64,000 bases of DNA from Rhizaria sp. SCN 62-66 (taxonomy: Eukaryota). The translations under genes were made by a program, and so were the position numbers. Below, one piece after another: positions 26,503 through 49,852 of this stretch. Where the stretch lies: positions 1-64,000 of the forward strand of contig MEDY01000049.1 in the NCBI GenBank assembly GCA_001724265.1, read 5' to 3'. Position 1 is the first letter of the stretch. The number at the start of each line of letters is the position of its first letter. The notes under the pieces are model-generated. The model ran no database searches. It had not been told where the DNA came from and was given only the letters and a program-made list of their open reading frames with translations.

Positions 26503-28180
26503 TCACAGCTTGGTCGCAATCAGGAGACCATCGCCAACGGGCAGCAAACAGTGCTGCACGCGCGCGTCCTTGGCGATGAACACGTTGAGCTGGTGGAGGA
26601 TCTTGGCGCTGGTCTTGAGCTCGGCCTCGCTGCCGGACTCCGCAGGAGCCGCGGCCGCCGCAGCCGCGGCTGTCGCAGCAGCGGCATCGGTCTGAGCGGC
26701 AGCACCAGCGACGTCGTGGCCCGCCGCGGAGTGCTTCCACTCGCGGATGACGTGTCCGCGGCGCAGCACGTTGTCGAGCGCGACGACGCCGCCCTTGCGC
26801 AGCAGCGTCAGCGCGAGCTCGTAGTACACGGGATACGCGGCCTTGTCGGCGTCGATGAACACGGCGTCGAAACTGCCCACGCAGTCCGTGGCAGCCAGCA
26901 GCTGCATCGTCTCGATCGCGCTGCCGGAGAGGCACCACAGAGGAAGTGCCGGGGACGGCGCGCCGGCCTTGGCCCAGTAGGGCAGGCCGATCGACTTGAA
27001 CGGCGCAGTGTCAACCTCCAGAGTCGCAATACAGGCTGTAGAAACAAACAAATCATAAAGCAACAAAAACCAAGCACATGTGAACTGACACACTCCAATA
27101 TATCTAAACGTGCTTTGGCTTTTAAGTTATCTCCGTCGTAAAATATGAATTGTTTGAATTAAAATGATATGAAATTGAGATTAGAGATAGACCACTGACG
27201 CATCGCTAGAGAGGGCTATATCTTGCGCCTGATTGACGTACGGCCGCGGGTGGGGAGCAGCGAAGGGTCTGTGAGAATGGGGTGCTTCATGGGGCCTGTG
27301 AACTCGCTCTTGCCATTCACGACCCCGGTGCCAACGACCTCCTCGCTGAGGCCGCCGGGCGACGCCGCGGGGGCCGGGTCCGCGCTCCCGGCCGCCGCCG
27401 CGGGCGACAGCGGGCGCCCGGGACGCAGGTTCGCGTTGGCGGCCGCCGTGCACGCGAATGCAAGCGCGGTGGAGCCGGTGAAAGTGCCGATCTCGAGGAT
27501 GCGGGTCGCCTTCTGTATGCAACAAGCGAAAGATACCAAATTATGAGAGAGAAAAAAAAAAAACACGTTTTTTAAAGATCAGACACATGATTTTAATAGT
27601 GATATTCGACTTTTATCTCTTAATAACGATAGACATCGCCATTGTGGTTGATGAAGAAAGCGAAGCAAATAGAAGATATTTCCGAGAGTTTGCGGATAAC
27701 AAGCATCGGAACGGACCATCTGACGCAGCTGCCAAGTCAAAAACTGGATAGAAGCACGGTCAAGCTGCAAACGCGCCTTGTGACCTATATATGAGAAGAA
27801 TCAACATTGTTATAGTGAGATATGCTGTGTACAAGTGAGGTGTAAACTAAAGCACGTGCGGGGATGCACTGTTCGTGGTCACATCAACCAGGAAAGCAGT
27901 GCAGAGATTAATGACGTAAAACAGGTGGCATCGTGGCATTAATGTGAAACGGACCAGTGGTGTCGACAGTGGCCTGGCGAAGCTCCTCAACAATGGCGGG
28001 GGCGCGGGGGCCGACGACAGCGAGGTACGAGTCAACATCCTCGAGAGATGAAGTGAGACCCTTGGTCTGACCGCCAAGAATGGCAGAGGAAGACAGACGA
28101 GCGGCAGAACGGGGGCCCGCAACGGAGCGAAGCGTGCGCGGAAGCAGGCGCGACGACAGGCGAGAAGCTGAACCGAGCAT
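26503..28180 (-). CDS. SAM-dependent O-methyltransferase, caffeoyl-CoA/COMTD1-like family (~365 aa, 4 exons), probable mitochondrial presequence
   Basis: Exons 28180-27955, 27784-27717, 27512-27242 and 27035-26503 join in phase (1,098 nt) across GT-AG introns. Motifs: ILEIGTFTGST, FDAVFIDADK, YYELALTLLRKGGVVALDNVL, LLPVGDGL. N-terminus is Arg/Ser/Leu-rich with no acidic residues. Stop is TGA. Confidence 0.9.
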
Positions 28181-28576: not shown

Positions 28577-31500
28577 ATGGCCTTCAATTCTAGTAGCAAA
28601 GTCAGCCCGCTCGTTACTTCTCTCCCACGCCGCTCTCAACTTTCTCGCGCGCCCCCGTACCTCTGCGGCCGCACTCTGCCGCCCCAGCCCGGCATGTCGT
28701 TCCACTCGCCCGACATCTTACGTGCGTCGGGCGCTCTGCTTCCCGACCTTGGTCCTCTGCCTCCCGCAGCCGCAGCCCCCCACCAAGCCCCTTTACTCAC
28801 TGCGACTGATAGCAGCTCCAGCAGTGGCGCCCGCAACAGCAGCAGCAGCGCGTTCGCGACTGACCCGCTGCTCGAGCCCCTGGACTACCCGGCCAACCGT
28901 GTTTCTGGTCGCGCCGGCGCTGGCGACGACGGCAACGTGGACTGGCGACCCCGCACAGCGTCACGTCCCCTTTCCCCTACAGACAGTAACGACAGCGCAC
29001 GCTGCGGTCGTGGCGCCACAGGCTCCAGTCTACTGTCCTCGCGCCGCATGGAGCCCCAGAACGGGAGCCACGCTGCCCATGACGCCACCGGCTCCACTGA
29101 GGACTCAGGTGCAGTGTCGCCGACGCAGACCGCCAGCAGCAGCAGTGAGAAAGCGTAGCCCACGTTCACACGCATCATCATCAAGGCTTCGGACCAGCCC
29201 GAATCGGCCGCTAACTCGACGAACAGTAGCAACAACAGCTTCAGCAGCGGCTCTTTGACGAACTTGAATAGCGCAATGGCTAGCTCCGCGGGCGCGCACG
29301 GCGGCGGGCTCTACGGTCTCGGCTACGGCCCCTCGCCCTTCGCCGCGCCCGCGCCGGGCTGCATCGCGACGACGCCGGCTGCGGCAGCCGCCGCGCTCGT
29401 CGCAGCCGTGGCCGCTGCGTCTGGCTCCGGCTCTGCTGTCTTGGCAGGTCACTCCGCGTCATCGTCAGCCTCGTCGTCGTCGTCTTCATCGTTGACTACG
29501 CTGCCCGTCAAAGTGCCCACGCACCTGCTGCCCCCGTCGGTGCCTGTGTTTGCGCTCGCGGCCGACCCCGCCGCGGCAGCACTGCTGGGCAGTATCGACG
29601 GCTTTGCGCAGTCCAATAACCCATTTTTGAACCCTTCAGCGCGTTTGATCGCCGCGCCCAGTGTCGCCAACGACGACGCTGTGACCGTTGCTGTGGCCAC
29701 GGCGGCGGCGGCGGCTGCAAAGGCTGCAGCAGCGGCCGAGGCGGCTGCCGCGCTCAGTGACCCTATTGACACGAAATTTGGAGTCAGCCGGATAAATACG
29801 AACAGCGGCGTGAAGCGCACGACTACTGGCCGTGGCACCATGATCAACAACAACAACACCAGTGCGAACAACGCCAATCCGAGGTCGAGCGCGAGTGTGA
29901 CGGCCAGAGCTGCGCTAGTGGGCCCCTCGCCCACTGGCAGTGGCCATGAGCGTAACCAGTTATCATTACTCGAGGACAGCGACGACATCGCCGCAGTGCG
30001 CGGCTACCCGGCCCCCGCGCCGCCGCTGCAGGCCTCCTTCAGCGACTTTTACCCCACGCCCGCGACTGCGTTCTCACTCGCCGTCTCCACAGACCCTACG
30101 AACAGCGCGAACGGCAGTAGCAACAACAGTGGCTCAACCCCCGGCGCCGCCGCTGCAGAGGCTGCCCCAGCAGCGATCCCCGTGCTTCCGCTGCCCGGCT
30201 CCGACTCGGCCTCGACTCCCGAGGGCGCTGCCGCCGCGGCCGCCGCCGCGCTGCCGACCTTCGCGGCCGCGGCGGCCCGCCTCGCGCGCACGGCGCTGGA
30301 GGACCCGGCCGCGGACGCCGCGTTTAGCCACTGCGTGTCGCACAACAGGCTTGTGCACCAGCGCGCGATGCCGCCAGACGTGTTGGTACGACTGGCGACC
30401 ATCGGGGCCGAGCTCAAGGCCACGGACCCGCCGCCGCGCGCATTGTGGGGTGCACTCTACGGAGACGCCGCCGCGGCCACCGCAGCCAAGGTCGCCGCCG
30501 AGGCCGCGCGCGCGAATAACAGCCAGAACGCTGCGAACCCGCCCCTGCCGCCGCCGTCGCCACTGCTTCCGGCCGGTAGAGGCACCAGTAACAGTGCCGG
30601 ATCACAGTCGCCGTCGTCGCGTCCCCAAACGCAGCAGTCCGCTCGCGGTGACGCGTCTGGCGCCAACAGCAGCGTCACGGGCGCACCGTCAACTATCGAG
30701 CAGCGCACGGCGACGTCGGTGCTTTTCTTCGGGCAGCCGCGGCGCCCGCCGTCGCCGGAGCGTGACTACTCCCTCGGCCACAACAACGCCCCGGTCAAGA
30801 AGCGGCTCGCGCCCTCGCAGGCGCGGCTGCTCGGGTTGCCGCTCGAGATGTGCAAGGGCGCGGCTCCTTTGGCGCCTGCGAGCGCACTCTCGAAGGGCGA
30901 GGGCGGCGGCAAGGCTGGCAAGAAGGGCCGCCGCGGCCGCCGTAACCGCAGCCAGGACATGGACAGCGCCAACGTGGGCAGCGCTAACGGCAGCGGGGAC
31001 GGAGGGATGACCGCGACTGCGAGCGCCGCTGCCGCCGCCGCGGCCGCGGTCGCCGCGCCGATTGACGAGGAGGCGCTGCAGTCGCAGCTCAGCCAGGCCG
31101 TGTTCCCCGAGTACTCGGATGTAGTGTGGACAGAAAAAATCGAGCCCAGCCAGGTCGCCGCCAAGAACGCGTCCCAAGCTGCCGCTGCCGACAGCGTCGG
31201 CTCGCAATCTCCGTCCAAGAGGCGCAGCTCCCTTGTCTTCACGACGCCGAGTGCAGCGCAGGGCACCGCAGCAAACGCCGCGAGCTGCACTAGAGGCGCG
31301 CGCGGCTCCATCAACGGCGGCACCATCCTCACGGCCGCGGCCGCCGTGGCCGCCGCCTCCGCCGCGGCCGCCGCAGCAGCCGCGGCCGTCTCGGGCACGT
31401 CTGCCGCGGTGGCCGCGAGCGCTGGCGTCGGCAGCCGCGACGCGCTGGACGCCTTCGCGGCGCTCGAGGGCGACGACGCCGGCGACAGCGGCGGCGCGGT

Positions 31501-34500
31501 CGGCGGCGGCGGTACGGTGCTGGCTGGCACGGCGGCGCGCGTGCTGGCGGGGCTCGGGCCCGGCGCGGCGGCCGCGCGGCGGCGGCGCACGCCGCTGCTG
31601 TGCGCGCTCCCCGGCGACAAGGACTACACGCGCTCGCGTAACGGGCGGCGCGCGCCGCACTCCGCGCAGGGCCAGGGCCAGGGGCTGGGGCTGGGCGGGG
31701 TGGGCGGTCGTCGGGGCAGCGCGGGCCCACCGGGGAGTGCTCCGAGCAACACGGCGAGTACTCCTAATCAGGCCAGTTGCGACGTCACAAGCGCGGGCTC
31801 AGTGCAATTGCAACTACCCGCTGACGGTGGTGACGGCGATGACATCAACTGTACCGACGAAGACGAGGACGAGGACGAAGACTCCGAGGAAGACGATTTC
31901 GAACACAGTGACAGCGAGACCAGTCTGAGCCGTGCCACCAGCGCCACCAGTAGCACGAGCAACAGCACCGCCGGCAGTCTGAGCGCCACGCCGACGCACG
32001 CTGCACAGAGCCAGAACCGCGCTAGCGGCGCTCGTCCTGCCGGCGCCAGTGGAAGCGGGTACCACAGCGGCATTCACCCCGCTCTCGCCGCCGCTGCTGC
32101 CGCGTCCTCAGCCGCCCGCCAGCGCGGCAGCGGCGACCACAAGGGCAAGATCAGCGCCGCCTTTGCCGCCACAGCCTCCACCGGCACTCCGCGGTCGCGG
32201 CCCGTATCCCGCGGCGGCAACGACCCCGCCGTCGCGGGCGGCGCGCCGTCCCCGCGCAGGCCTGTCTCGGCGAGCCGCGGCCGGCGCCAGCTGTCGATGG
32301 CCCTTGCAGCCGCAGCAGAGGCCGCGACGGCCGCGCTGGACCCCAACGCCCCCGCGCCCGCGGCCGGGCTCTCCGCGACCGGGCTCCATGCCACGGCGCT
32401 GACGACGAGCGCATCGGGCACCGCCAGCGGCGGCAACAGCAGCCCCGCACCCATGCGCAAGTCGCTCTCAGTCTCGGCTGCCGCGGCCGCCGCCTCTGCG
32501 GGCGCGGGCGCGGGCGTCAGCGTGCCACAGGGCTCCGTCGTGTGCGTCACTGCGCTGCCCACGGCGCGCGGCTCCGTACTCGTGGTCTCCGACGCGGCGC
32601 AGCGGAAGCAGCAGCAGCGCGGCAGCGACAAGAAGCGTCCCAACGCGAATAGAAGCAGCGGTCGTCTTAACGCGGATAACAACAGCGGCAACGTGAGCGC
32701 AACCGAAGACGACGGCAGCTAGCCTGTGTCCGCGACTGTGCGCGCCGCACAGCGCAATCTCTCGACGTTTTTGGACGATCCGACCGGCAAAGACATCATC
32801 GCAGCCTATGCTTCGCGCCAGCCGACTGTGATCTTCACCACAGCCGCCCCTGACGCCGCCGCGGTCGCCGCCGCCCTGGCCACCAACGAGGGCGCTGGCT
32901 CTGGCGGCGGCAAGGGCGACGACGATGACGACGACTATGACGACGACGGCAGTGCCGATGTTACGCACAAGCTCAACGGCGCGATTGGCGGGCCCGCGAC
33001 CGACCACGAGGACGGCGACACGTTCGACGTCAACATCTCGCCCCCGCGTCCGACATCGCGGCTTGCCAGCCACGGGTCCAAGGCCAGCTCAAGCGGCGGG
33101 ATCAGCAGGCGGCCGTCGCACAACATCGGCTCCACTGCCAACGCGCTCGCCGCGCCCAACACTGTCCCCACGGCGGCGTCCGCGGCCGCCGCGATCGCCG
33201 CCGCGTCGGCCGCCACGGGCACCGACACCGGGCTGCGCAACACAGTCATCCCGGGCGGCGTGTTCGCGGCGTCCGCTGCGACGGGCAGCACGGGCGTCAG
33301 CTTCTCGTCAATCTCGTCGCTCGCGTCCGGGAACGTCGGCTCCAGCATCAGCAACCAGGCCCCGCGGCTGCAGCGCAACCAGGCCTCGGCGCAGAAACTC
33401 ACGCTCTCGCAGCGCCGGCGCCAGCGCACCGCTCCCAGCCACGCCGACGGCAGCGGCAGCGGCGCCGAGGGCGCCGACGGCAGCATTTCGACGGTGAACA
33501 AGAAAGAGTCGCTCGTGATCGAAGACGTCAGTGACATCGATCTCGGCATCGTCGGTTCTGCAGAGTGGCGTGTTCGCGCGCCGCACGTTTCGGCCGATAC
33601 CGCCGCCGCTACGGGCGCTGCCACCTCGGCCGCAGCCGCCTCAGCCGCTGCGGCTGCCGCCGCCGTCGCCGAGTCCGCCACGACTGCAGCTGATGCCGCC
33701 GCGGCCTCCGCGGCCGCCGTGCGTCTGGCGCGCGCGGCGCGGCTCGCCGCGGTGGGCTTCAGCACCAACGCGCCGGGCCCCGGCGGCATCGGCACGCGCC
33801 AGGAGCGGCTGCGCATCACCACGAACCGGCTCTCAGCGCGCGTCGGCGAGCTCATGGCGCTGCGGCCTGGCGGCGTCACGCGCGGCGACGTGCAGCGCCT
33901 GCGCCGCGTGCTGCGCCCGCTCTACGCGCAGGAGGGCGCCGCGGCGGCCGTGGCGGCCGAGGAGGCTGCCGCTGCAACGGGTCGTGGCGGCGGCGGCGGC
34001 GGCGGCGGGATGCGGCGCGCGCGTACCGGCAGGCACGGCAGCGCCGGTGGCAGCTTGTTCAACGACGATGATAGTAACTCAGCTGCTGCGGCCGCTGCTG
34101 CGGCCGCCGCTGCTGCTGCGTCGTCGTCGTCCACGTCTTCGGCCGCCGCGGCTGCTGCTTCCGCCCCGCTGCGTCTGCTGCCGATCGAGGGCCGCAGCTC
34201 TTCCCTCGCAGATGTGACCACGCACCTGCGCGGCGGCCTAACTTCCACTTTCTCCTCCATGGGCGGCACCGGTTCGTCGTCGGGCCAGTCCTTCGGTGAG
34301 CCTCCCGTGCAGACGGCGGCGTCCGCGGCCTCCGCGACCTTCGGCCACCACTGGCCCGGCGCCCCGGGCGCGCGCGGCACGGGCTCCGTGTCACTGCTTG
34401 CTCCGGCGACGGGGCCGTACATGGGGCCCGGGCGCTACGACGTCGCCGGCCACTCGCTCGCCGCAGGCGCGGGCACCGGCGCGCGCGGCGGCGTGAGCTT

Positions 34501-37500
34501 TGACCGCACCACAGGCCGCAACGGCCGCGGCGGCGGCGTCATCGCGGCCGCCAGCGGGGCCGGGCTCAGCGCCGGCGCGGGCGCGCTCCTCACCGCGCCG
34601 TCGGGCACTGCGGCCGCGATGGCGCTGGCGGGCTCGCACGGCAACAGCGGCGCCAACAGCCACACGCACACGGTGCCCGCCGTGGTCGAGCGCCTGTACC
34701 CGAAGCAAGACCCGTCGGGCGGCGCGACGGCGGCGGCCGCGGCGGCGGCTGCTGCGGCCGTCAATGGCAATAACGGCGTCAAGCGCACGCTCACTGCGCC
34801 GGCGCTCTCCTCGACCCGGACTACTAACTATAACACGACCACTGCGGAGTCCGCTGCGAATGCACATGCCGCAACAGGCGCTGCTGTCGGCGCCGGCGCT
34901 GGCGGCGCTGCCGCGATTGCCAAGCTCGCGCTGATTGCTCTGGCAGAGGCGGACGCTGCGGGCGCACCCGAGTCTCCCGTGCCCAGCACTAGCAACACCG
35001 CCGGTGCGAGCGCGAGCGATAACGCGCACCACGCCGCGCACGACGCGACCGCGGGCATCCCGCCGGTGCTGCTGGCGCTGGCGCTGGCGCCGCGGCCCCC
35101 CGGCGCGACCGAGGCGCAGCCCCGCGACCCTGCGCGCCCGCGCGTGCCGGGCCCGTCGTTCGCGCTGGCGCCGGAGCGCCGCACCACGCTCGGCGTGCCG
35201 CTGGGCGCCGACGGCACCATTGTTGGCGGCGGTGGCGGCGCCGTCGGCGGACTCAGCGGCAGCAGCAACGGGCTCGCCAGCTCCTTCTCCGGCGCGGGCG
35301 CCGGCGGCGGCGCGCACGACGGCGGCCGTGCGGCCGCGCTCACCGCGTCCGCGGGCTCGGGCACGCTCGCTCTGTCGGCCTTCGGCCCGCTGCTGCCGGG
35401 CGGCGCGGCGTCCTCCGTCGCGGGCACGGGCTACAGCAACCGACTGATCCCGTCCCTCGCCCCCGCGACGTTCGGCACGGCGGCGCGGTTTGGGCCCTCG
35501 ACCTTCGGCGGCGCACACAGCGCGGGCTCGGGCCCCACGCCAGGCAACGGCAGCTTCGCGGTGCCCTCCGCGCTGATCAAGCGCGGGACGAACCCGCCCA
35601 GCGACGGCGCCGGACTCGTGGCCTACCGCGGCAAGCAACGCGACCCCGAGACGATCGGCCGCCTGTTGCGCACGCCGTCGCCCGAGAAGCCGCAGCGCGC
35701 GCTGCCGCGGGTCGCGCGGACCAAGCTGGGCGACGGCGACAGCGATGATGACGACGACGGCGACGACGATGACGACGGCGCAAGCGATCCCCGGCTGTTG
35801 TCCGCGTTTGCGCTCGCGGACAACGCTGCAAACAACATCGCTCAGCAACTCAAGCAGCAGCAGTCAAAGCAGCATCAGCAACAACAGTCACACCAGCAGC
35901 AGAAGCAAAAGCACGCGCAGGTGCCTGTGCCGCCGCCGTCGCCGCCGCCACACTCTGCGGTCCCGGCTGCGCTCGTCTCCGGCAGCAACGCCGACGGACT
36001 CGCGGCGCGCGCTTTGACGTCCGGTGTTCTGTCCTCCGCAGCCGCCGCGTCGCTGCTTGCACCGGGCGCCGAGTCGCTGCGTGGCTCTCTCGCGGCCGCT
36101 GCGTTCGCCGAAGTGACGGATACGAACAACACCTCCAGCGATGGCAGTAGCGCGACTCCGCGTGTCGCGCCTGCACTGCTGTCGCCGCTCGAGCTTGCCT
36201 CTGCGCGCGCCGACGCCGCCGCAGCCAACAAGGCGCACGCTGAGGCCGTGTTGGCCCGGTCCACGCGCGTCGCCGCGGCCAAGCTCGCGAAGCTGCGGTG
36301 CAAGGTCATCGACGCGGACCGCGAGCAGCGGCAGCGGCGCCAGCTCCTCCGCGCGCAGGCGCTGTGGCTGACGGTCGCGGCCGCCGCGCAGGCTGCCGCG
36401 GGCTGCGAGCAGCACATTGCGAAGCTCGGACTGCGCATGCCGCTCAACATCAGCCGGCACCTGGCCGCGGCGCGCATTCAGCGGCGCTGGCGCGACCACC
36501 AGGACCGCGTGGCGGAGCGCAAGCAGCGCGAGGCCGCGTCGCTAATTCAGCGCGTGTTCCGCGCGCGCCTGGCCGGCATGAAGCAGCGCCGCATGCGCAT
36601 CGCCGCGGACACGCTGTGTCGGTTCCTGCTCGACGTCAAGGACAACATCCACGACGACACGCGCTCGCTCATCCTCGACCCACTCGCCGCGCCCTCCGCC
36701 GTGGGGGCGGGGGCGGCCGGGGCCAACGCGCGCGGCAGCCCGTCGGGATCACCGCTGCCGGACACGCGCGCGCTGCTGTTCGCAAACCAGCTGCCCGCGC
36801 CCACCGCCGGGTCACCGCAGCAGCCGCAGCAGGCGCGCAGAGGCAAGTCGTCGCAGCTCGTGTCGATCGTCGGCGTCGTCCGCGACTTCAAGGCCAAGAT
36901 CCTGACCTGCCAGCGCGCCGTGCGCCGCTTCCTGGTCCGCCGCGCGGCACAGCGCGAGATCCTGCTGCACTACTGGGCGCAGCTGTCGCACGGCGCGCTC
37001 ACCGCCGGCGCCACGCTTGCCATCGCCGCCGCAGCCGTGGGCGCAGACGACGAGGCCGCCGCGGAGGCCCTTGCGTCCGCGGGGCTGCTGCAGTCGCTCC
37101 CGGCCACGCCGCCGCTCGCCGCGATCATGATGCTCTCTGCGCCCGCGGGGCTCGCGAACGCCAACGCGGCGTTCGCGGCGTACCAGGCCTCTGTGAGCGC
37201 TGGGAGCACCGCAAACAACAGCGCCGCCGCATCGAACAACGTGACGCCGCTGGTGCCCAGCCGCTCGATCAGCGCGGCGGGCGGCAGCGCTGTGGGCGCG
37301 AGCGTGCAGTCGCCCGGCAAGACGAGCCGGCTTGGCAACCGCTCTCTCGCCTCGCCGACCCCCGCCACGCTCATGGCTCCCTCGGCGGCGGCGAGCCTGC
37401 AGCAAGGCGGCAGCGACGACGGCGACGACGCGGTGACCGAGCTGGACACAGCCTACGCGACCGCGTTGGCGACATATAACAGCGGCAGCAGAGGCTGCAG

Positions 37501-40500
37501 TCTCGCGCTCCCCGCCGTGACGCTCGTGCAGGTGCAGCGACTGTGGGCCCGGGCCGCCGCGCGCGCCGCCAAGCTGCCGCTGCAGCACGGCAGCGCCGCC
37601 GCGAGCACCGGGCCCAGCGTCGCGCACTCGCCCAGCGTCGGGCTCGCGTCGAGCACGAACGCCAGGGCCACGGCAGCCGGTGGCAGTCCTGGCCGCGTGC
37701 GCGGTGGGGGCGTTCACAGCCCCCACTTTGTCTTCAACGGCAATACCAACGCGCTTGTCGTGCCGTCTGCCACTAACTCAGCTTTCGGCTCCCGATCCGT
37801 TTCCCCTGCCGCTAGCTCGAGTACGCCCCCGGTGATTGACTTCAACTCGCCGCCCGCGTCCGTCTCCGCGACCGGCTTCTCTGGTCACAATACGAACCCG
37901 GGCAGCGTGAAGGCCTCTTTCCCCACCCCGTCAGAGCTCACAATCACCGCGCCCGCTGCCGCCGCCGCTGCCTCTGCCTCCGCGTCCGCTGCCGCCAGCA
38001 ACATCGGCTTTGCAGCGGCCTCCGCAGCGCGCGCCCGCATGCAGGCCGCGGCCTCGCCCGCCGACGGCGGTTCGCGCAACGCCGCGCCTGTTGCGCGCCG
38101 CGCTGTTGTCACCGACAGCGTGCGCGCGCCAACGCTGACCGCGGGTGACTTCTTCATGCTCCGCTGGCAGCAGGCCTCGAACACGGCCGCCGCCACCACC
38201 GCAACCGCGTCTGCGGCGGCGCTGGCGCTGTCTGCCGGGCTGGAGCTCGCCCCCGTCGCGGCGTCCGCGCTGTCCGCCGCCGCCGCCTCCGCGGTCGCTG
38301 CGGGCGCGTCCTCTGCCTCCGCAGCCGCAGCCGTGCCGGCGATGAACGTCAAGACGGCGCACGCGCTCGTCGCCGCCGCGGCCACGCACTACTGCGGCGT
38401 CGCGCCGCCGGCCCCGCAGCAGCCCACCGCTAGCGCTAGCACCGGCGGGCTCGCGTCGCTCGGGGTCAACAGCAACGGCGCGCTCGTACCGGCCGCGGCC
38501 CCGGCCTCGGCCGCCTCGCTTGCCGCCGCCTCGGCCGCTGCGACGGCCGCGCTGGGGCTGCTGCGTCTCGAGGCGCGCGCGCTCACGGCCGCGGACCGCC
38601 ACGTGTTCGTGTCGTCGCTCATCCGGCGCCGCGTCAGTGCGCACTACGCGGCGATGAAGGCGCACGCCGTGCAGCGCGAGGAACACGCTCGCTCGGTCCG
38701 CGCCAACGTCTTCGGCATGCAAGCCACCACCTCGGCGGCGGCTGCAGGCGGCGGCGACGCGGGCGCAGTGTCCGGCGGCATGGGGGCGTTGGGCGCCGCG
38801 TTGTTTGGACCCGCTGCCGCCGCAGCGTCTGCTGAAGCTGTCGAGAAGGCCTTCTTGGCCAAGTACCCGACTCCGGTGTACTCACTGCTGCCGAGTCCGT
38901 TCGAGATGTTCTTGTTCTTGCTCGCAGTTGCGCGGCTGTGGCTGCTCACTGCCCCTGCCGCCACGTCCCCTGCCACTGCGGCCGCGGCGGCGTCAGCTGC
39001 AGCTGTCACGACCGCTGTTGCTACAGCGCCGACCGCCGCTGCCGCCGCCGCAGCCACCGCGGCTGCGGCTGCCGCAGCGCCGGCGAACGCAGTCTCCTTG
39101 GCCTCAGCCGCGGCCGCCTTCGCGGCCGCTCTGACTGCGGCAGCCACCTCGGCTACGTCCGCGCCCGGCTCGCCTGCAGTCCCCGCGGGCCCGCCCGTGC
39201 TACACGAGCACACGGGCACCGCCGGCAGCTCCGCCGTTGCGTCCGCGGTTGCCGCTGCGGCCGCGGCGCCGAGCACCGGCGCCACGGGCTCCGCCGCGCA
39301 GCTCATGCTGCGGCGCCTGCGCGAGCGCCTCTCGGGCGTCGGCAGCGCTGCCAGCGTTGGCGCCAGCTCGGCCATGCTGGGCGGGGGCGCGTCCGGCGGC
39401 GGCGGCGGCGGCGGTGCGCACCACGCGCGTACGTCGTCTCTGGCGTTGGCGCCGACGCCCGCCAGCCACATGCGCACTATGTCCTCCGACGTGCGTCTCT
39501 CGCACGCCGCCAGTGCGCTGGGCATCACGGGCCCGCTCTCGGTGCCGACTCTCGCTGCCGCGGCCGCCGCCGAGGCCGGGCTCACCGTCACGGATGCGGC
39601 GCTGCTCGCCATCCGCGGCGTCGCGGCGGGCGACCTCCTCGCCGCCGGCGCGGCCACGGGCGTCGTCGCCGTCACCGCGGCGCGCACGACGCCAGCCGCC
39701 GCGGGCGCGACGTGGGGCGCGATGCGCCGCTGTGTGCGTGCCGTGCGCCACCTGGCGCCCGCGCTGGTCATGACGCTGATGCAGCGGCAGCAGCAGGCTG
39801 CGGCGACGCTGAGCCACCTCAACCACGTCGCTGCGGTTCACGCGCGCCGCCGCGGCGCGCTCAACGTGAGCACGAGCAACGCCACGCCCGCGCTCAGGAC
39901 GCGCTCCCCGTCGGCCGCCTCCGGAGCCCCCAATGTGGGTTGGGGCGCCGTGTCACCGCTCATCGCGCACAGCAGCATTACCCCGACTCTGAGCGCGATG
40001 CCGTCGGTGCTGCAGCACCAGCGCTCACTGGCGCTGAACCCCGCACGCCGCGGCACGCTGCCCAGCAACTCGCTGTCGCCGTCGCCGCTGCCTGGCGCGT
40101 CGCCCCCCGGCGTTTCGCGCGCCCCTTCTGTGGCGGGCAACACCGCCGGCGCGAACGCGAACGCGGGGCGCACGAGCCACCGCCGGTCGGGCTCTGCGTT
40201 CACGACGCCCAGCGCGGTGAGCCAGTACCTCCTCACGGTCACCGGGGCCGCGGGCTCACACGGAGGCACCGCGATGGTGGCCGCGGCGACGGGCAACAGT
40301 GCTGCTGTTTTAGCCCCCAACAATAACGCTGGTGGGAATAACCCTGCAACTGCGACTTTGCATGTGCACGTGTCACGCCCGACGTCACCGCATGGTCACA
40401 ACCCGAATGCAGCGAATGCGAGCGGCCGGACGTCACCCAAGACGGGCACGCACGCTCTGAGAGCGTCGGGTGGCAGCTTCAGTGCGAGCGGGCTGCGCGG

Positions 40501-41332
40501 GGCTCCCAGTAGCAGTGGTGGTAGCGGGATGTTGAACAGCAGTCGGACTCGTCGCAGCAGTGTTGAGACGCCTGATGTCGACGTGGAAGTCTCTGCAGCA
40601 GTGAGCGCGAGCACTGTGGGGAGCACTCCCGCGTCTGTGCTACACTCGTTGCGCGGGCAAGACTCTCAAATGGGCAGTGGCAAGCGTAGTAGTGGCTCAA
40701 TTGCCGCCTCTGCGAACAGTAGAGGCTCCGGCTCCAACGCTCAGCTGACGAAACTCGTCCAGGACATTAACACAAACAGCAAAGCGAACAACTTGAACGC
40801 GACTGCAAACTCGCTGGTGTCGCTCTTCTCCCCCGTTGCTAACGCGAGCACAAGCAACAACAGTAGTTTGACTGCAAGTGGCAATGCGGGCGCCAGTCAC
40901 GCGGGAGCCACCGGTGGATCCAGCTCCAGCTCCGGGTCAGGCTATGCGTTGCCGATGGATATTCAAATGCATCTGCGCCCCATGTTTGCATCGCCCACTA
41001 CTGATCCTACTCATGCTCACTCCAATGTGAGCCACAACATCGCTTTCAGCGGGCACAGCAGCAGTGAACTTGACGGTATCTCCACTGCTTTGTTGATGTC
41101 AACCCCCTTGATCGCGGCTCATAGCACCGCTGCTGCGGGCGGCCGCAAGGGTGTGGCGAACAGTAATGTTAATGTGAACGCTGGAGCTGTGGGCACCACT
41201 CCTCAGTTTGCGAGCGGCCGGTTGTATCTCTCTCCGGCTGAACGCAACGCTTTGCCGGTGCCGTTGTCAAAGCTGCAGAAGAACTTGGCTGAGATCATGC
41301 AAGGAGCAGGTAGTGCGGGTGGCAACGCGTAA
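28577..41332 (+). CDS. Giant single-exon protein (~4,251 aa if TAG is sense) with IQ calmodulin-binding motifs and PGP/SHIPPO-like repeats
   Basis: Track ORFs 28520-29158, 29255-32722 and 32726-41332 share one frame and are separated only by TAG (29156-58, 32720-22). There is no AT-rich spacer, and the two downstream pieces lack ATG starts. IQ motifs AAARIQRRWR, AASLIQRVFR and ILTCQRAVRRFL (~36460-36950). GPGRYDV at ~34424. Ends in TAA followed by an AT-rich 3' region. Confidence 0.8.
29156..29158 (+). other. In-frame TAG, inferred sense (Gln)
   Basis: GAG AAA GCG TAG CCC ACG TTC...; the frame stays open for more than 1,180 further codons. Confidence 0.75.
32720..32722 (+). other. In-frame TAG, inferred sense (Gln)
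   Basis: GAC GGC AGC TAG CCT GTG TCC...; the frame stays open for ~2,870 further codons. Confidence 0.8.
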
Positions 41333-42153
41333 TCCTGCTTTTGTTGTTGTTATTAAATATTAACCTATGAATGTAATACTAATAGGCCTATTTTGCGATG
41401 TGAACGAATATTTGACTGCCAGAATTTAGTCTTGATTATCAATACAGCTGTTTTATTTTGACTTTGTTCAGTTCAGTCCATCCATTTTTCGTTATGTCCA
41501 AGCCAGAGTTGTATTAAATTTGGTTTTGAGCAAAGTGCAATGCGAGGCAACATTGACAAGAAATACAATAATCAAATCAAAAAATATACAAGATATAACA
41601 TTTGCAACTCTTTTTGGGGTGAAAAGTTGAGCTAGATGTACTAGTACCAACATACGTACGTGTTACGTGTATTAATATTAATACCAATAAGCTTATTTTT
41701 AATAGTAGTAATCAGCAAGAAACACACACTTGACCATGCGGTCATCTGCTTTTTGTGTTCTTTTCACGCTGGCTGTTTATATGTTTTGTGCATATCTTGA
41801 GTGATTTCAAGCAATGTCTGTGACATGCATGCACCCGATCACCAGGCTTCCTGAGCCGAACACGCTGCTAATAATACAGTGTTTTTCTCTGTTTCTTGGA
41901 CAGCTTCGCAAAATCAAGGAAGACAATTAGGTAAGATAATCTCGATGACATCTCCATATATCCAACTATAAACCAGCATAATTGATATAGTTCACCTTTT
42001 TGATTCTCATATTCAAACTTAACTTTGTGTATCAAATTTGGGGTCTTGTAAACATCACACTGAATCTTCCGCTGCTAACTTGCACAACATCTCGTACCCT
42101 GTTGTGAAGGACTCAAAGGCAGGGAACTAAGGCAAAAGCAGACGACCCACGGG

Positions 42154-44931
42154 ATGTCAAGTAATAATGCTGTTGAATTGTGCGTATCTGATCAGGGTAC
42201 TGCTGCGCGTGAAAGCATGAGTGGTAGCGACTTTCACGAGACCCTGAGCATACCCAACCTGCCGTTTTCGGACTTCCGCATTGTCGATCTGGCTGACCGC
42301 GGTGGCTATTCAGCCGTCTATCGCGCTGTCTACACACCCAGCGGCGGCAAACCAGCCACTGTGGCGCTCAAGGTGCTAAACGCACATGCTGATATCATAC
42401 ACAGCAATAAGGCTGTCATGGGTGAGTTGCAGATTCAATACGGACTGCGATCAACCCATGTTGTGCGTTGTCACGGTGTCACTGTGACAAAAACAATGAC
42501 TGGCGCATTCACCAATGGAAAAACCACTCCAAATGTTGATGGTAGTGGTGAAGACAAGTTCGTGATCGTGATGGAGTACCTCTAGGGTGGCTCGCTCAGT
42601 CGGCTTCTGGCACACCCCAAATACCGCACATTATCTAGCGAGGCACGCGTTTGGCTGGCAAAGCAAGTCACGAGCGCGGTTCGCACATTATCTGCTCAAA
42701 ACATTGTGCACGGAGACATTAAACCCTTGAACTTCCTCTGGGGTGTCGACGCCGATGACACGCGGCCGCTTGTCAAGATTTCCGATTTTGGCAACTCGAA
42801 GCTTCACGCGACGATGATGAGCATGTCAATTGCGCTTTCTACGAGTACGCCAGACTCTCACAATGTGCAATAGCCTTGAATATCAGCATTACGGTTGCGT
42901 TGATCTTGGTTTTATTTCACACTTGCAAGTTGTATCCATATGTTCTTTCTTCATTTGCACCCGATCTTAGACTCAGTCAACGGTACGGTGTCCTGTATGG
43001 CTCCGGAGTTGCTCACTGGCCGTTATCAACATAACTCAAAAACAGATATCTATGCTTTAGCAATGACGCTGTTTGAAATTGCATTTGGCGTCACGCCTTT
43101 TCTGCGCATGTCGAACAGTTCCATCATGGCATTGGTCACCAGTGGCAGCCGGCCCACGCTCGACATCACAGATTACAATGGCGACGCGCAGCCTGAGTTG
43201 CTGCCTGGCACAGCACCCTCGCCAGAAATCACCGCGCTAATTCGCGACTGCTGGGATGGTGAGCGTGACCGGCGGCCGTCGATCGACACGATCGTTGATC
43301 GGCTCGAAGCCATGCCAAGCGATGAAGTCGCTGAAGTCGCTGCTCGCAACTTCATGCTGCACGTCCTCGGACGCGAGCCGTCCGCACAGCTGCAACAGCA
43401 GCAGCCGCGCGTACCTCCGCATGTGCCCCCGCGGCCGGCTATGAAGCCAGCGCCAAAGCCCAATCCGATTGCGGCTCCATCAGATTCATCTCACGGCTCA
43501 CAAACTTCCGAGGAGTGTTCGACTGCTTTGCGGAATACCCAGGACGCGGGTTTCGCATCACAAGTTGTGTCAGCCCCTTCTTTGGCTGCAAATAATTTGG
43601 TATTGCCTTCGCCTGCGCTATCTCTTGTAGCATCGACGGAGAGTCCGTCCTCCGCATCATCATGTCTGTCAGCTTCTCGGGCCGAGTCCAGTAGTTCGGG
43701 AGACTCCGCTGCTTCTACAACAGCTCTGCGTGATCACTTGTTGCAACAACAACTTGATCTTGTGCTTATCCCGTTGAGGGCACCTGCACCTTCCGACCAG
43801 GCAGAGGAGCTGTATGCTACAGGGTTGGAGCTGGTTCGGAAAAGCCCTCAGGGCTACGAGTTGTTAAGGGGTATCGATACACTTGCCCAGGCAGCCAACA
43901 TGGGCCATCAGGACGCCATACGCTAGACAGTACTGTTTTGTTCGCGGCCGCAACATGGAAAGTACAATATCCCACTTGCAATGAGGTGGATGAAAGGGCT
44001 GGCTAATAATAGTATAAGTGGCTGCTACGAGTACGGACTCTGGTTAATGGCGCGGCAACTCAATCTTGATGAGGCCGAGGTCAACCTGCGCCGTGCTAGT
44101 AATGCTGGACACCCACGGGCTGATGGTGCGCTTGCAGCTCTTGATGCGCTCCGGATTGAAACAGATGCAGTGACAGATCTGAGTGATAGCCAACACAAAG
44201 AGCTCGTAACGCGTCTTCGCTCGGGCGTCCAGAGCGGTGATCCGGCAGCCGCGTACATGCTGGGTCGTGCAATGTACAACGGTTATTTGGGTCTCTCGAA
44301 GGACCAAGATACTGGCCATGCGTTGATGATGCGTGCAGGTCGGGCCACCGAAGGCGAGTACTTCTACGGCCCCGCAGCGGCTTATTACAGCCAGAACGGG
44401 AAATCTTTGCCGCACACAATAGCGGCGGCCGAGGCTGGGGTCGTGGAGGAACAACTGTGGCTTGGCAAGCACCTCACCGAGACCGGGAGTGATGTCGAAG
44501 GGTTGGGGTGGCTGCACGTCGCTGCTGACGCGGGCAACGTGCATGCGTTGATTCGACTTGCTGAGATCAGCTACAACGGACGCTGTGGCCAGCCAGTAAG
44601 CAAGGAGAACTCGTACCACTACGCAGTGCGTGCTAACGCAACAGGTCAGCCGGAGGGTGTAGCTGAGCTCGCAATGCACTACATCCTGGGAGTGGGTGTG
44701 GATGCGAATCAGGAGCTCGGCGTTCGATTGCTGCAAGATACTTCAACACGCACGGAAAATAACGAGGCAATATATTTGTTGGCTATATGCTACATCAACG
44801 GCTGGGGAGTTCAGCGTGACATCGAGACCGCGAAAACGTGGTTGAGGCGGACTCGTGAGTATCCCAAGGCACAACGCATGCTGTTCAGGATTGAGTGGTC
44901 TTCAAGTGACTTCACTACCAAGGTCTTCTGA
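42154..44931 (+). CDS. Tyrosine-kinase-like (TKL) protein kinase with C-terminal Sel1-like repeats (~883 aa, 2 exons, two in-frame TAG)
   Basis: Exons 42154-42844 and 42971-44931; intron GTACGC...TTAG, phase 1. Motifs RGGYSAVY, VALK, VMEYL*GGSL, IVHGDIKPLN, KISDFG, GTVSCMAPE, DIYALAM, CWDGERDRRPS. Sel1 repeats (AAYMLGRAMYNG, ALIRLAEISYNG, AIYLLAICYINGWGVQRD). TAG at 42583-85 and 43924-26; stop TGA. The 5' end may extend further upstream. Confidence 0.88.
42583..42585 (+). other. In-frame TAG at the kinase hinge (MEYL*GGSL), inferred Gln
   Basis: ATG GAG TAC CTC TAG GGT GGC TCG CTC. The catalytic loop and DFG follow in frame. Confidence 0.85.
43924..43926 (+). other. In-frame TAG inside a Sel1 repeat, inferred Gln
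   Basis: GHQDAIR*TVLFCSRPQHGKYNIPLAMRW: 18 open codons link it in frame to ORF 43981-44931. Confidence 0.8.
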
Positions 44932-45630
44932 GATACATACGAAGCAAGATATATTCGCTAAAGAGTAGTATATGGGGTATGATTGACGCGCAGTTGATGA
45001 TTATATTGACGCACATGTTGACCTTAGGGCGTTAGGAGCAGGTTCAATGACTTTGCAAAACCCTTGGGTGTAGAAAAGACAACAAGTACTGAACAGTCTG
45101 AACAGTAACTGCAATGATAGTGACTGAAAGGTGAGGCTACACAGAAAATTCAAATGGCGATATCGACGCCGTACTCACTAATGCGTTTACAACACGAGGC
45201 ATGCAACAAATGTTTGCCTCTTCCACTGTTAAAAAAAGAAGAGGAAATGAATATCAAGACGAAAAGTAAGAAGATTAGGAAAGGGGGTGAACGTTTTAAC
45301 ACAAACGAACATTAAGTTACGTTGAACACCAGGCAAGTGATGCTTGGTAAAAACAAAGAGTGGATAAGAATGGTAGTCAATACATGTAGATCAATACACT
45401 TTATTTTATGAGTTCTGCATCGACCGAAATGAACATCATCATTGATGTTTGACTGATCCACTGAGTGTTGCACTCACACCATCATCGCCACATACTATCA
45501 ACCCAACAACCACATGGACATATCTACAACAGAAATATAAAGTCGTGAGTCATCGTAGCTGACCCGAATATTGACTGACCGTGGCTGGCAGGCAGTAGTC
45601 GCAGTCGTAGTACGAATAGGGTAATTACCC

Positions 45631-46269
45631 TCAGTCGACTTTCTTGCTTCCGCCGGTGCCAGTCTTCTTCACACCAACACTCGCACCCGCACTGCCGCTA
45701 CTCTCCAGCACCTCATTCCTCGACGCGCTACTGCTCTTGGCCTCAACAGCGCCGTCGGTGGACTTAGCAGCCTTGGCAGCCTTGGCCGCCGCGTCGGCCG
45801 CCGCGAGGTCCCGTTCCATCCGCGCCTCACGCGCCTCGATCTCGGCCTTCTCCGCCGCGCTCAGCGGCTTGCTCGCCGCGGCGCCGGCGCCGGCGCCATT
45901 GTTGAACTGCGAGAGGTCAATGGGCGCAAAGGCCTTGCCGATGAAGAAGCGCACGACGGCCTGGCCTAGCTGGTTGGCCACGGCGGTGAAGAGATCGCGA
46001 TCGTAAGAGCCCTAGGAGAACCAGTTGAAAAGCAGCGAGACAAGAAAGCTGCTGCCGTACATGTAGTACACGTCGCGGTCCTTTGACGTAGCGAGCGCGA
46101 CGAGGGAGAGCAGGACCCAGAGCGCGAGCGTGGCGTGCTGGCAGTGTAGGAAGACGCTCCACGCGTAGACCTGGCTGTCGTAGAGCAGCACGGCTGTGAG
46201 GATGAGCGCAAGAATAATGCCGTGGAGGCCCATGCCAAACAAGGCAAAGACAAGGCGGTGGTCGACCAT
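45631..46269 (-). CDS. Small multi-pass membrane protein (~212 aa) with a charged C-terminal tail; one in-frame TAG
   Basis: MVDHRLVFALFG... has about three hydrophobic segments, then NWFS*GSYDRDLFTAVANQLG joins ORF 46269-46012 to ORF 45981-45631 in frame. Stop TGA. The start codon is uncertain because an upstream intron is possible. Confidence 0.7.
46012..46014 (-). other. In-frame TAG, inferred sense (Gln)
   Basis: TGG TTC TCC TAG GGC TCT TAC GAT CGC; coding-type GC3 codon usage continues on both sides. Confidence 0.75.
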
Positions 46270-46676
46270 TCGAGTGGCACGGGTCGCAGGGATACAACTG
46301 CTACGGGCGGCTGACGCGACAACAAGGAGAGTGCGAGAAGAATCAAAAGATCAGTTTGAGGAGGATTCTTGCAAAGTAACACAAGTGTGAGAAATAGAAA
46401 ATATACAAGACATCATAGTAAGTACGATTACAAGGTCTTGCTTGTAGGTACTGATGAAGTCACCCGATGCGAGGTTTAATAATGCGCCAGAGGATAGAGC
46501 AGTTGACTGGTGGTTGCCTTGGTGTTTGAATCGGCGACCTTACCAATCCTAGATATCGGTGGTTCTTCCGTCAGTCCAACTGTGACCCCGGATACAGATG
46601 TTAAACACATCTTATACTACCTTCTCTAAAATTCTTCTTTCTAAATCCATGTTTCTGTTGTAGTATCCTTCTTAGA

Positions 46677-47894
46677 ATGTTCGACGAGGTAAACGTTGAA
46701 CAGGTCGCCAACTCGGCAGGCCCCGCCATGCCTTCCCGGCCCCGTCGTGTACGTCTCATGATCTCGAGCTTTAACAGCACATTTGCGATTAGCGCTACAC
46801 TTTTTATTCCGATGTTTCTGTCTGCATCACGCACCACTCATGTTCTATTTCTTCTTATTTTCGCATTCGGTAACAGCCGCGCCCCACGGCCGAGACGTCG
46901 GGCTGGGACGACGCGGCCCCCGCTGCCGCGGCCCCGAACGCCGCCGCCGCCACCGCGCCTGCGTCCGCTGGCTACGCTCAACAGCAGCATTAGCAGCAGC
47001 AGCATCAGCCGACTGCGGCCTCTGTGGCTGCTGGTGGCGCCGCAACCTTCGGCCGCCGCGCCGGTGGTGCCAATGCCAATGACGCCTTCAATAAGTACGC
47101 AGTCAAACGTGTTTTTAATCAACGCGATGACTAACATGATTAAAGTACTCCACGATAACGTTTTCTTTGACTGTCTCAACTCTAGTTGTCCTTATCAGCT
47201 GTGAATCGCTTGGCTCCACTCACATCCAACTGCTTCCTTGCCTGTTTCCCATCCTAACGATTCCGCCTTGCGACTCTGTCACTGCTGCTACCGCTGCTGC
47301 TGCTGCTGATGCTGTTGCGATTACAGCTCTGGCGACAGGTTTGGCCAGTCCCGCGGCACCCAGAACCAGCACGACCTCGCCGACGACGATGCCAGCTTCC
47401 GCAACAACAACAACAACAGCGGCGGTGGGATCAACGGCAACAACGATGACGGCGGTATCATGAACATCCCGACGCTCGACGACGCGGACCACGTCCCCGA
47501 GCTGGGTTCCGGCGCGCCTGCGGCGGCCGAGGCGCCCCAGGGCTGGACGGCCTCGGTGCTAACTCTCGCCGACCTCGACGGAAGCGGCGGCGGCGGCCTC
47601 GCGTCCAGTCACAGCGCCGGCGCCGGGGTGGGCGCGGGCGGGCCCGGCGGCGGCGCCCCGCTGACGGCGCGCGGCGGCATGGCGGGTGGGCTGGCGGCGC
47701 TGCCCACGGTCACCCCCGAGGGCGTCGACCTGTCGCTGCTCAAGGACGCGCTCCTGGCGCCCAGTCTCGTCGCCGAGGGCGAAGAGCGCTGGGGCTTCGA
47801 CGCCGTGCTGGGACAGGTCATGCTGCGGCTCGGCGGGGATGGCGCGGACGCCGCAGAGGAGGCCGCGGCGGGCAGTGGCAAGGCGCGCCGGTGA
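46677..47894 (+). CDS. IFT43: Intraflagellar transport protein 43 (IFT-A subunit), ~285 aa, 3 exons, one in-frame TAG
   Basis: Exons 46677-46748, 46877-47094 and 47327-47894 (858 nt, phases consistent). Motifs SGWDD, FGRRAGG, IPTLDD, AEAP, LTLADLD, EGVDLSLL..LLAP..V.E.EERWGFD match my recollection of the IFT43 family. Stop TGA. Confidence 0.85.
46991..46993 (+). other. In-frame TAG within a polyglutamine tract of IFT43 exon 2
   Basis: CAA CAG CAG CAT TAG CAG CAG CAG CAT CAG = QQQH*QQQHQ, 38 codons after the exon-2 acceptor. Confidence 0.85.
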
Positions 47895-48383: not shown

Positions 48384-49852
48384 ATGGGCAAGTTCGCCCA
48401 ACTCGTTGTCGGTCCCGCCGGCGCTGGCAAGGTTCGTTACCTCCCTAAACATTGCTTATCCAATGATATCTCACTCTCCTCGTAAACGTTCTCTATCGTT
48501 CTCGCCGTGGCTCACTTCTTACATACACTCTCTCGTTTCCTTATTTGATTCCCTCTTTCCCTCGGCCCACCGCTCCGCAGTCGACCTACTGCAAAGCCCT
48601 CGCGACGCACTTCGAGGCGATCCACCGCCCCGCGCACATCGTGAACCTGGACCCCGCGGCCGAGGCGTTCGACTACCCCGTCTCGGTGGACATCCGGGAC
48701 ATGATCCAACTCGACGACGTCATGGACGAGCTCGGCCTGGGCCCCAACGGTGGGCTCATTTACTGCATGGAGTACATGGTCAAGAACTTCAGCTGGTTTG
48801 AGGACCAGATCGACGACTACAGCGACGACTACCTCGTCATCGACTGCCCTGGGCAGATCGAACTCTACACGCACCTGCCTGTGATGCGCACCTTCGTCTC
48901 CAACCTCAAGCGCATGGGCTACCAGATGTGCGCTGTGTACCTCATGGACTCCTTTCTTATTACCGACCCCACGCGGTACGTTGCAGTCTCCGCACCGCTG
49001 AAAACTGAACGCATTTGCTGAACTGAACGCGCTTTGTCTTCTTTATGCCAATCATGTAGGACTTTTGCATTGAACAAGTTTTTGAATTGTCGCTATTGCA
49101 TTTGCTCGCCGCTAATCTCACCCTTGTTTCTTTTGTTTTTCTGCTTTGTGTCTGCCTTGCTTTTGCATGGCTTCTGCTTCATTTGCTTCTCCCTGCGTAG
49201 CTTCCTGTCGGGCTCGATGATGTGCATGTCTGTGATGGCTCAGCTCGAGCTGCCGCACGTGTCAATCCTGTCCAAGTGCGACCTGCTGCCCGACAAGTCC
49301 GCGCTCGACAACGTGCTGGAGCCAGACACGCACAGTCTGCTCCAGTCACTCAACTGTATGTCGCATAGTGCACTCGCACTCACATCGCACTCGAACAAAC
49401 ACCATTATACTGCTGTAACACTGCCACACTTTATATGTCGACGTAGATGTTGTGATATGGTCTGGAAACATATTGCACACAATAGATGCGCCAGATAATA
49501 TATTCTCATTGGACTTGCTTTGTATTATTGTATCCATGTAAACATAACCCATATTCACTGTTCTCACCTACCACCTGTCCACTTGCTGCTTTTCTTTATG
49601 TTGTTTCTGCACTTCTCGTGTTTAGCCGAGTCCCACGCGGCGATGCGCCCGCTGAACTCGGCGATCGCGGAGCTGGTGGAGGAGTACTCGATGGTGGCTT
49701 TCACGCCCCTCGATGTGACTGACGAGGACAGCGTCGAGAAGGTCCTCAGCATCGTCGACACGGCGATGCAGTACGGCGAGGACACCGAGCCCCGCGACCT
49801 GCTGCCCGAGGAGGGCGGTATGGACGCGCTCGACGGAGGGGACAACTTCTGA
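48384..49852 (+). CDS. GPN3: GPN-loop GTPase 3 (~274 aa, 4 exons)
   Basis: Exons 48384-48431, 48581-48975, 49201-49355 and 49626-49852 (825 nt). Motifs MGKFAQLVVGPAGAGK|STYC, VNLDPAAE, LGLGPNGGLIYCMEY, IDCPGQIELYTH, ILSKCDLL, QYGEDTEP. Stop TGA. Confidence 0.95.

Follow-up and report, generated by a model that had tools for sequence, protein, structure and literature searches.

Probable use of UAG as a sense codon, and of UAA and UGA as stops, in a GC-rich eukaryote from wastewater

Four adjacent genes on the 64-kb stretch of DNA analyzed here (contig MEDY01000049.1, positions 1 to 64,000; hereafter the window) are interrupted by in-frame TAG codons, which raises the question of whether the organism translates UAG as an amino acid, and if so as which one, or whether these genes are defective. 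The window is eukaryotic nuclear DNA with nine genes, and the four in question encode, in order, a giant low-complexity protein, a protein kinase with Sel1 repeats, a small membrane protein and IFT43. Considering that the sequence is coding on both flanks of each TAG, that at three sites homologues align through the codon without gaps, that the in-frame counts are six TAG, no TAA and no TGA, and that genes terminate only in TAA or TGA, we regard it as probable that UAG is a sense codon in this organism and that UAA and UGA are its stops. A first-pass annotation of the same DNA had listed six in-frame TAGs in these four genes, and all six were found again where it had placed them (Table 1), followed by the same triplets on the 3' side (CCC, CCT, GGT, ACA, GGC and CAG), which have no motif in common.

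Codon usage in those parts of the window's giant genes that lack TAG served to train a model, with which we compared the reading frames on each side of every TAG. The same frame was preferred on both flanks of all six codons, with scores of +0.24 to +0.56 nat per codon; intergenic DNA, taken as a control, gave -0.14, and a score of -0.02 was obtained for the 33 codons that precede the proposed start of the giant low-complexity gene at 28577. In that gene the open reading frames (ORFs) at 28478-29158, 29159-32722 and 32723-41332 (226, 1187 and 2869 codons, respectively) are contiguous and in one frame, with only TAGs between them. The TAG at 29156, with +0.36 nat per codon upstream and +0.46 downstream, is the least certain of the six sites, and the 193 codons upstream of it also score as coding. 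At 32720 the G+C content (GC) is 0.71 before the codon and 0.68 after it, and no AT-rich spacer is present. The parts of the proteins that lie downstream of TAGs include conserved ones: the catalytic loop and DFG motif of the kinase, the Sel1 repeats, the IFT43 domain and the SYDRDLFTAVANQ block.

Over the 18,462 modeled codons, position-specific base composition predicts about 150 TAG, 45 TAA and 41 TGA in frame, and the gene models contain 6, 0 and 0. UAG thus occurs at about 4% of its compositional expectation, or approximately 0.3 per 1,000 codons. None of the nine gene models needs a frameshift, in agreement with the first-pass annotation, which had reported neither frameshifts nor in-frame TAA or TGA. 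It had also described the nine genes as ending in TAA (four) or TGA (five) and never in TAG, and this distribution was confirmed. The GC falls sharply behind all nine terminators, to 0.32-0.49, and shows no fall across the TAGs (0.51-0.71 before, 0.52-0.69 after).

Protein relatives that could be aligned through a TAG were available for three of the six sites, those of kinase exon 2 having been recovered by a HMMER scan of library representatives. In the column of the TAG at 42583, seven relatives of kinase exon 1 (38-64% identity) carry A, E, D, A, D, E and D; at 43924 four relatives of the Sel1 part carry E (the closest, with 51% identity), L, A and K; and at 46012 the only relative of the small membrane protein (P0013, 56% identity) reads FNWFS-E-DSYDRD within a conserved block. 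All of these alignments are gap-free, so that a single residue stands at the TAG at each of the three alignable sites. Because the homologues continue through the codon without a gap, we conclude that neither an intron nor a gene end is located there. In-frame introns containing the TAGs are rejected on these grounds at 42583, 43924 and 46012, and they are unlikely at 32720 and 29156, where no AT-rich island is found. Scans of genome and viral contigs with the kinase alignment returned only distant bacterial and giant-virus kinases (21-44% identity), and a scan of viral contigs with the small-membrane-protein alignment returned no match. Standard gene callers cut the proteins of this organism at TAG, as can be seen in a public protein library where the window's own kinase gene is split at 43924, one entry (P0015) ending at residue 304 and the next (P0014) starting at residue 346.

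The DNA of the window is found in bioreactor, wastewater, activated-sludge and microbial-fuel-cell runs from 2015 to 2025. At least part of it is contained in 12 runs from eight studies, and four runs contain at least half of its words. We aligned the contigs of four runs to positions 28400-47950; two of these runs, X3 and X4, come from two further studies. The X3 contigs show no difference at 29156, 32720, 43924 and 46991, the X4 contigs carry the TAG unchanged at 29156, 42583 and 46012, and an X7 contig is unchanged at 32720. In none of the runs compared was an alternative letter present at any of the six sites, and the TAGs are identical in samples spanning 2015-2025 from three studies. A metagenome contig from the Joint Genome Institute (L001, 2,245 nucleotides (nt)) is 100% identical across 43924; since it is equal in length to the corresponding X3 piece, the two may be the same data. 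A metagenome scan with kinase exon 2 returned only this identical copy and no DNA of relatives. The organism turns up repeatedly, in runs from no fewer than three studies spanning ten years, and more material should therefore be obtainable.

The alternative that survives best, which we nevertheless consider unlikely, is that the code is standard and the six TAGs are ordinary nonsense mutations in a block of four genes (28.5-47.9 kb) that is being lost. Several results weigh against UAG as a sense codon, and part of them speak directly for such a loss. All six TAGs lie in four adjacent genes that comprise 5,605 of 18,458 codons (P = 8e-4, or 2e-4 to 6e-4 when scaled by Gln or Glu codons, values that are uncorrected for the block having been chosen after seeing the data), and the phosphodiesterase and phosphatase giant genes have no TAG in 12,065 codons. 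A general sense codon does not predict this clustering, which could be due to chance, to a local mutational burst or to an expression-dependent bias against a codon that is decoded poorly. In these GC-rich genes TAG makes up 61% of the one-step nonsense opportunities, so that six TAGs out of six nonsense mutations would not be very improbable (P about 0.05); under simple nonsense mutation the uniform use of TAG is suggestive, not decisive alone. In one X4 contig five extra letters follow 42389, in a stretch of kinase exon 1 that is colinear with its homologues. This insertion at 42389-42390 would shift the frame and lead to a stop about 34 codons further on; unless it is an error of the contig, it is genuine in the population sampled, and the kinase gene may thus be broken in one population. 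The kinase also has at least seven relatives in its family, and one copy may therefore be dispensable.

Strain differences and the limits of the sample complete the case against a sense codon. At least 16 single-letter differences between strains are listed, at least 14 of them in coding sequence. When all runs are pooled, synonymous changes account for 7 of the 12 kinase differences and for 8 of the 14 in coding sequence (P about 0.01-0.07), and among the kinase differences seen only in X7 five of six are non-synonymous. The X7-only differences are located on contigs with a depth of 2.6-4.1, at 33-136 letters from the contig end, and because of this low depth and nearness to the ends they may be errors or stem from a more distant strain. 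The absence of TAG among nine terminators is a small sample, which we estimate to have a chance of about 5-10% under the standard code. The 64-kb window holds no eRF1 gene, no transfer RNA (tRNA) or transfer-messenger RNA and no Rfam family, the eight contigs listed for X5, a run of poly(A) RNA, leave all the TAG sites uncovered, and only six codons, from one 64-kb contig, are at issue.

Against the loss of the four genes stands, in the first place, the type of damage. Decaying genes usually gain insertions and deletions about as fast as nonsense codons, and in the window these genes have no frameshift, TAA or TGA, with a coding signal that is undiminished downstream of each TAG. The kinase-gene differences found in X4 and/or X5 are all synonymous (6 of 6), and all are located downstream of the TAG at 42583, four of them also downstream of that at 43924; under neutrality, with 24-34% of changes being synonymous, the probability of this result is 2e-4 to 1.5e-3. 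The identity of the TAGs over a decade and three studies, and their absence as terminators, also argue against a block in decay. Finally, no shift toward AT is seen in the giant low-complexity gene, the small membrane protein gene or IFT43. In the giant low-complexity gene CAA accounts for 15% of Gln codons, compared with 26% and 33% in the two giant genes that lack TAG; it has a GC at third codon positions (GC3) of 0.82, is the least AT-shifted of the three, and displays no C-to-T or G-to-A hypermutation. Decay by C-to-T hypermutation of the kind produced by repeat-induced point mutation, a way out that the first-pass annotation had itself raised, is hence not supported, given the lack of an AT-shift in this gene and the lack of in-frame TAA.

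It is also conceivable, and in our judgment decidedly improbable, that UAG is still a terminator, only a leaky one, and that near-cognate tRNAs read through the six sites with no dedicated tRNA. The scarcity of in-frame TAG relative to expectation, together with its absence from two giant genes, looks as if the codon were costly, and a C follows three of the six TAGs, a 3' neighbor that favors readthrough of stops in eukaryotes. However, readthrough would be needed early in four genes for a functional product, for example at residue 144 of the kinase and at about residue 43 of IFT43, and it would have to operate in six 3' contexts without a common motif, while TAG terminates none of the nine genes. 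Correction of the TAGs in the messenger RNA, through a U-to-C change that restores CAG or through some other change, would likewise leave the code standard, and we assign it very little weight: no direct evidence favors it, it would leave the avoidance of TAG at gene ends unexplained, and we know of no nuclear system that edits stop codons only. Assembly or sequencing errors, the other objection anticipated in the first-pass annotation, have a negligible probability and are ruled out, as far as contigs go, by the unchanged TAGs in contigs of other studies, each site being covered by at least one of them with no other letter.

If UAG is a sense codon, the question that follows is which residue it specifies. 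The first-pass annotation had answered it with glutamine (Gln, Q); its claim that UAG is sense is supported, and its choice of residue is not, for none of the 12 homologue residues in the three TAG columns is Q (E 4, D 3, A 3, K 1, L 1). In the closest homologue, E occupies two of the three sites and A the remaining one. We obtained a posterior for the residue with a Codetta-like procedure, in which profiles were built from homologues only and emissions were multiplied over the three columns. The resulting product is 0.67 for E, 0.09 for D, 0.07 for A, 0.06 for K, 0.025 for S and 0.022 for Q, with L below 0.011. The only site that favors Q is the TAG of IFT43, which sits in a poly-Q setting (QQQH-x-QQQH): in the proteins of the window at least five Q among the eight neighbors are found for 63 of 718 Q residues versus 2 of 522 E residues. 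Combining the emission product with this context gives 0.55 for E, 0.33 for Q and 0.07 for K, and dipeptide (neighbor-residue) statistics comparing Q and E are uninformative except at the poly-Q site.

General knowledge also bears on the choice, since one transition turns CAG into TAG and UAG, where reassigned, most often means Gln. Because the columns favor glutamate (Glu, E), and the poly-Q site and prior knowledge favor Gln, we consider the two residues about evenly probable, given that UAG is sense, and leave a small share to all others; Leu, Ser, Tyr and Trp are poorly supported. Three alignable sites are too few to exclude Gln. That UAG specifies glutamate while UAA and UGA both remain terminators, in a GC-rich, intron-bearing, ciliated eukaryote known only from wastewater metagenomes, is in consequence put forward tentatively, as a possibility with the balance of probability tilted against it. 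If true, this code table would have no counterpart among those described, and its user would be unrelated to the ciliates and trypanosomatids in which stop codons mean Glu. By analogy with other UAG-only codes, a tRNA with the anticodon CUA would read UAG and not UAA, and eRF1 would have lost or weakened its recognition of UAG. The rarity of the codon would fit a reassignment that is recent or inefficiently decoded.

The genes of the window and their coordinates are given in Table 1. Coding stretches have a GC of 0.52-0.76 and the spacers between them are AT-richer. Three giant genes are free of introns and consist largely of low-complexity sequence rich in Ala, Ser, Thr, Asn and Gln, within which, in the phosphodiesterase and phosphatase genes, small recognizable domains are embedded (PDEase_I, DSPc and PDZ). 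The PDEase_I match covers only the first 127 of 238 profile positions, and this domain may be split by an insertion. Introns are present in several of the other genes; they are short (126-222 nt), of the GT-AG type and were all placed by eye. The GPN-loop GTPase 3 gene encodes the most conserved protein of the window, which is suited to phylogenetic placement.

The IFT43 gene was identified through Pfam (E = 5.5e-11), its conserved domain being located in exon 3, downstream of the TAG. Exon 2, which holds the TAG, matched no family in the Pfam scan, and the protein encoded by exon 3 had no PDB sequence match at E up to 1. The presence of IFT43 points to an organism with a cilium or flagellum, and together with the introns it bears out the description of an intron-bearing flagellate given in the first-pass annotation. 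The gene ends with two TGA codons in tandem (47892-47897). The joints listed for X5, the poly(A) RNA run, are mostly short GC-rich false joins, and none of them is a credible splice joint. An X5 contig (46492-46963) follows the genomic sequence without a break across the first IFT43 intron proposed here (46689-46876) and may derive from unspliced RNA or from DNA carried into the library.

The kinase gene differs from its neighbors in codon usage, with a GC3 of 0.56-0.58 versus 0.69-0.93 and nearly equal use of CAA and CAG, unlike the rest of the window. The ORFs of its seven exon 1 relatives (P0006-P0012) become unalignable a few residues past an SMS motif, which corresponds to the site of the window's intron at 42845-42970, and the position of this intron seems to be common to the relative family. 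Another relative (P0021, 34% identical to kinase exon 2) ends three residues past the equivalent of the TAG at 43924, where other relatives continue; this end could be due to an intron, or to a stop within the frame, in the organism it comes from.

Table 1. In-frame TAG codons, terminators and genes of the 64-kb window (x, position of the TAG; GC, G+C content next to the terminator)
Feature	Position	Strand	Description
TAG 1	29156..29158	+	giant low-complexity gene; context SSSEKA-x-PTFTRI; no homologue at this position
TAG 2	32720..32722	+	giant low-complexity gene; sole break between ORFs of 1187 and 2869 codons in one frame
TAG 3	42583..42585	+	kinase domain; context VIVMEYL-x-GGSLSR; upstream of catalytic HGDIKPLN and DFG motifs
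TAG 4	43924..43926	+	kinase gene, between kinase domain and Sel1 repeats; context HQDAIR-x-TVLFCS
TAG 5	46012..46014	-	small membrane protein gene; context LFNWFS-x-GSYDRD
TAG 6	46991..46993	+	IFT43 exon 2; Gln/His run AQQQH-x-QQQHQ
TAA terminator, phosphodiesterase gene	912..914	-	GC 0.56 before, 0.40 after
TGA terminator, O-methyltransferase gene	26503..26505	-	GC 0.70 before, 0.49 after
TAA terminator, giant low-complexity gene	41330..41332	+	GC 0.58 before, 0.32 after
TGA terminator, kinase gene	44929..44931	+	GC 0.52 before, 0.42 after
TGA terminator, small membrane protein gene	45631..45633	-	GC 0.68 before, 0.42 after
TGA terminator, IFT43 gene	47892..47894	+	GC 0.80 before, 0.43 after
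TGA terminator, GPN-loop GTPase 3 gene	49850..49852	+	GC 0.61 before, 0.45 after
TAA terminator, signal-peptide and membrane-anchor protein gene	51793..51795	+	GC 0.71 before, 0.39 after
TAA terminator, phosphatase/PDZ gene	63563..63565	+	GC 0.74 before, 0.41 after
Phosphodiesterase gene	912-25802	-	8,288-codon ORF; cyclic-nucleotide phosphodiesterase domain PDEase_I; no intron
O-methyltransferase gene	TGA at 26503	-	Methyltransf_3
Giant low-complexity gene	28577..41332	+	about 4,251 codons; Ala/Ser-rich; no Pfam domain; ends TAA
Protein kinase and Sel1-repeat gene	42154..44931	+	exons 42154-42844 and 42971-44931; ends TGA
Kinase gene intron	42845-42970	+	GTACGC..TTAG, phase 1; placed by eye
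Small membrane protein gene	45631..46269	-	212 codons; no known family; ends TGA
IFT43 gene	46677..47894	+	exons 46677-46688, 46877-47094 and 47327-47894, placed by eye; GT..AG introns
GPN-loop GTPase 3 gene	48384-49852	+	about four exons; PF03029; best PDB match GPN-loop GTPase 3; no in-frame TAG
Signal-peptide and membrane-anchor protein gene	TAA at 51793	+	secreted or membrane-anchored, from the translation
Phosphatase/PDZ gene	52232-63565	+	3,777 codons; DSPc, PDZ_2; no intron

Nuclear codes in which UAG and UAA differ in meaning are few, those named in the parts of the literature cited here being the codes of Iotanema, the rhizarian exLh, Scotinosphaera, Protocruzia, some phyllopharyngean ciliates and one oligohymenophorean ciliate. 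Such split codes are informative about the way eRF1 distinguishes UAG from UAA and about the capture of stop codons. In the open full-text literature, with subscription journals and supplements outside the scope, we found no report of UAG as Glu with UAA kept as a stop, and no wastewater eukaryote with a reassigned UAG.

Codes in which both UAR codons (UAA and UAG) were reassigned offer one comparison. In the cited passages UAR is given as Gln in Amoeboaphelidium protococcarum, Hexamita and many ciliates, and as Glu in Blastocrithidia (PMC5304391, PMC6299283, PMC11687900, PMC12153298). As described there, these codes read UAA as sense too, whereas in the window TAA has no in-frame occurrence and serves as terminator four times. 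A UAR code with Gln or Glu (NCBI table 6 or the Blastocrithidia type) does not fit the window, considering that TAA ends four of the nine genes and that the GC is then 0.32-0.41. The lack of TAA among the six events would be weak evidence alone, because CAA is only 26% of Gln codons. An uncultured oligohymenophorean ciliate is cited as reading UAA as Lys and UAG as Glu (cited in PMC11687900). There, according to that mention, UAG has a meaning of its own, and this is the only nuclear code in the cited sources for which such a separate meaning is Glu, the residue favored by the columns here; unlike in this ciliate, in which UAA is sense, TAA ends four of nine genes in the window and is never in frame.

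Closer in form are the ciliates in which UAG changed alone. For phyllopharyngean ciliates and Protocruzia tuzeti the passages cited give UAG as Gln or Leu and UAA as a stop, with Gln in Protocruzia and two phyllopharyngean ciliates and Leu in one phyllopharyngean clade, and they report suppressor tRNAs in these UAG-only ciliates (PMC11687900). As far as those passages describe them, the window shares with them a UAG that appears reassigned alone and a UAA that is firmly a stop. Unlike those ciliates, the DNA analyzed here is a 64-kb contig with GC-rich ORFs of 25 kb and GT-AG introns of 126-222 nt. Such long GC-rich ORFs and introns do not, we presume, resemble a ciliate macronuclear genome.

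Reassignment of UAG alone outside the ciliates is described in the cited passages for the rhizarian exLh, with Leu, and for Scotinosphaera, with Ser (PMC5304391, PMC11687900). The window resembles both in this respect and probably differs from them in the residue, as Leu accounts for 1 and Ser for 0 of the 12 homologue residues, with a posterior of 0.025 for Ser and below 0.011 for Leu. In the fornicate Iotanema spirale, UAG is given as Gln and UAA and UGA as stops (PMC5304391, PMC9161772), and the cited passage notes a change in the GTS motif of its eRF1 (PMC9161772). Like Iotanema as described there, a flagellate that is not a ciliate, the organism studied here apparently has UAG alone as a sense codon and keeps UAA as a terminator. 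Unlike Iotanema, its homologue columns favor Glu, with Gln left open; and while the sources describe Iotanema as an endobiont known from its transcriptome, the present case comes from GC-rich genomic DNA in wastewater samples. The class that fits the window is therefore probably the small set of UAG-only reassignments. Another example would be informative about the early phase of such a change, here in a GC-rich organism that does not look like a ciliate and in which UAG is still very rare.

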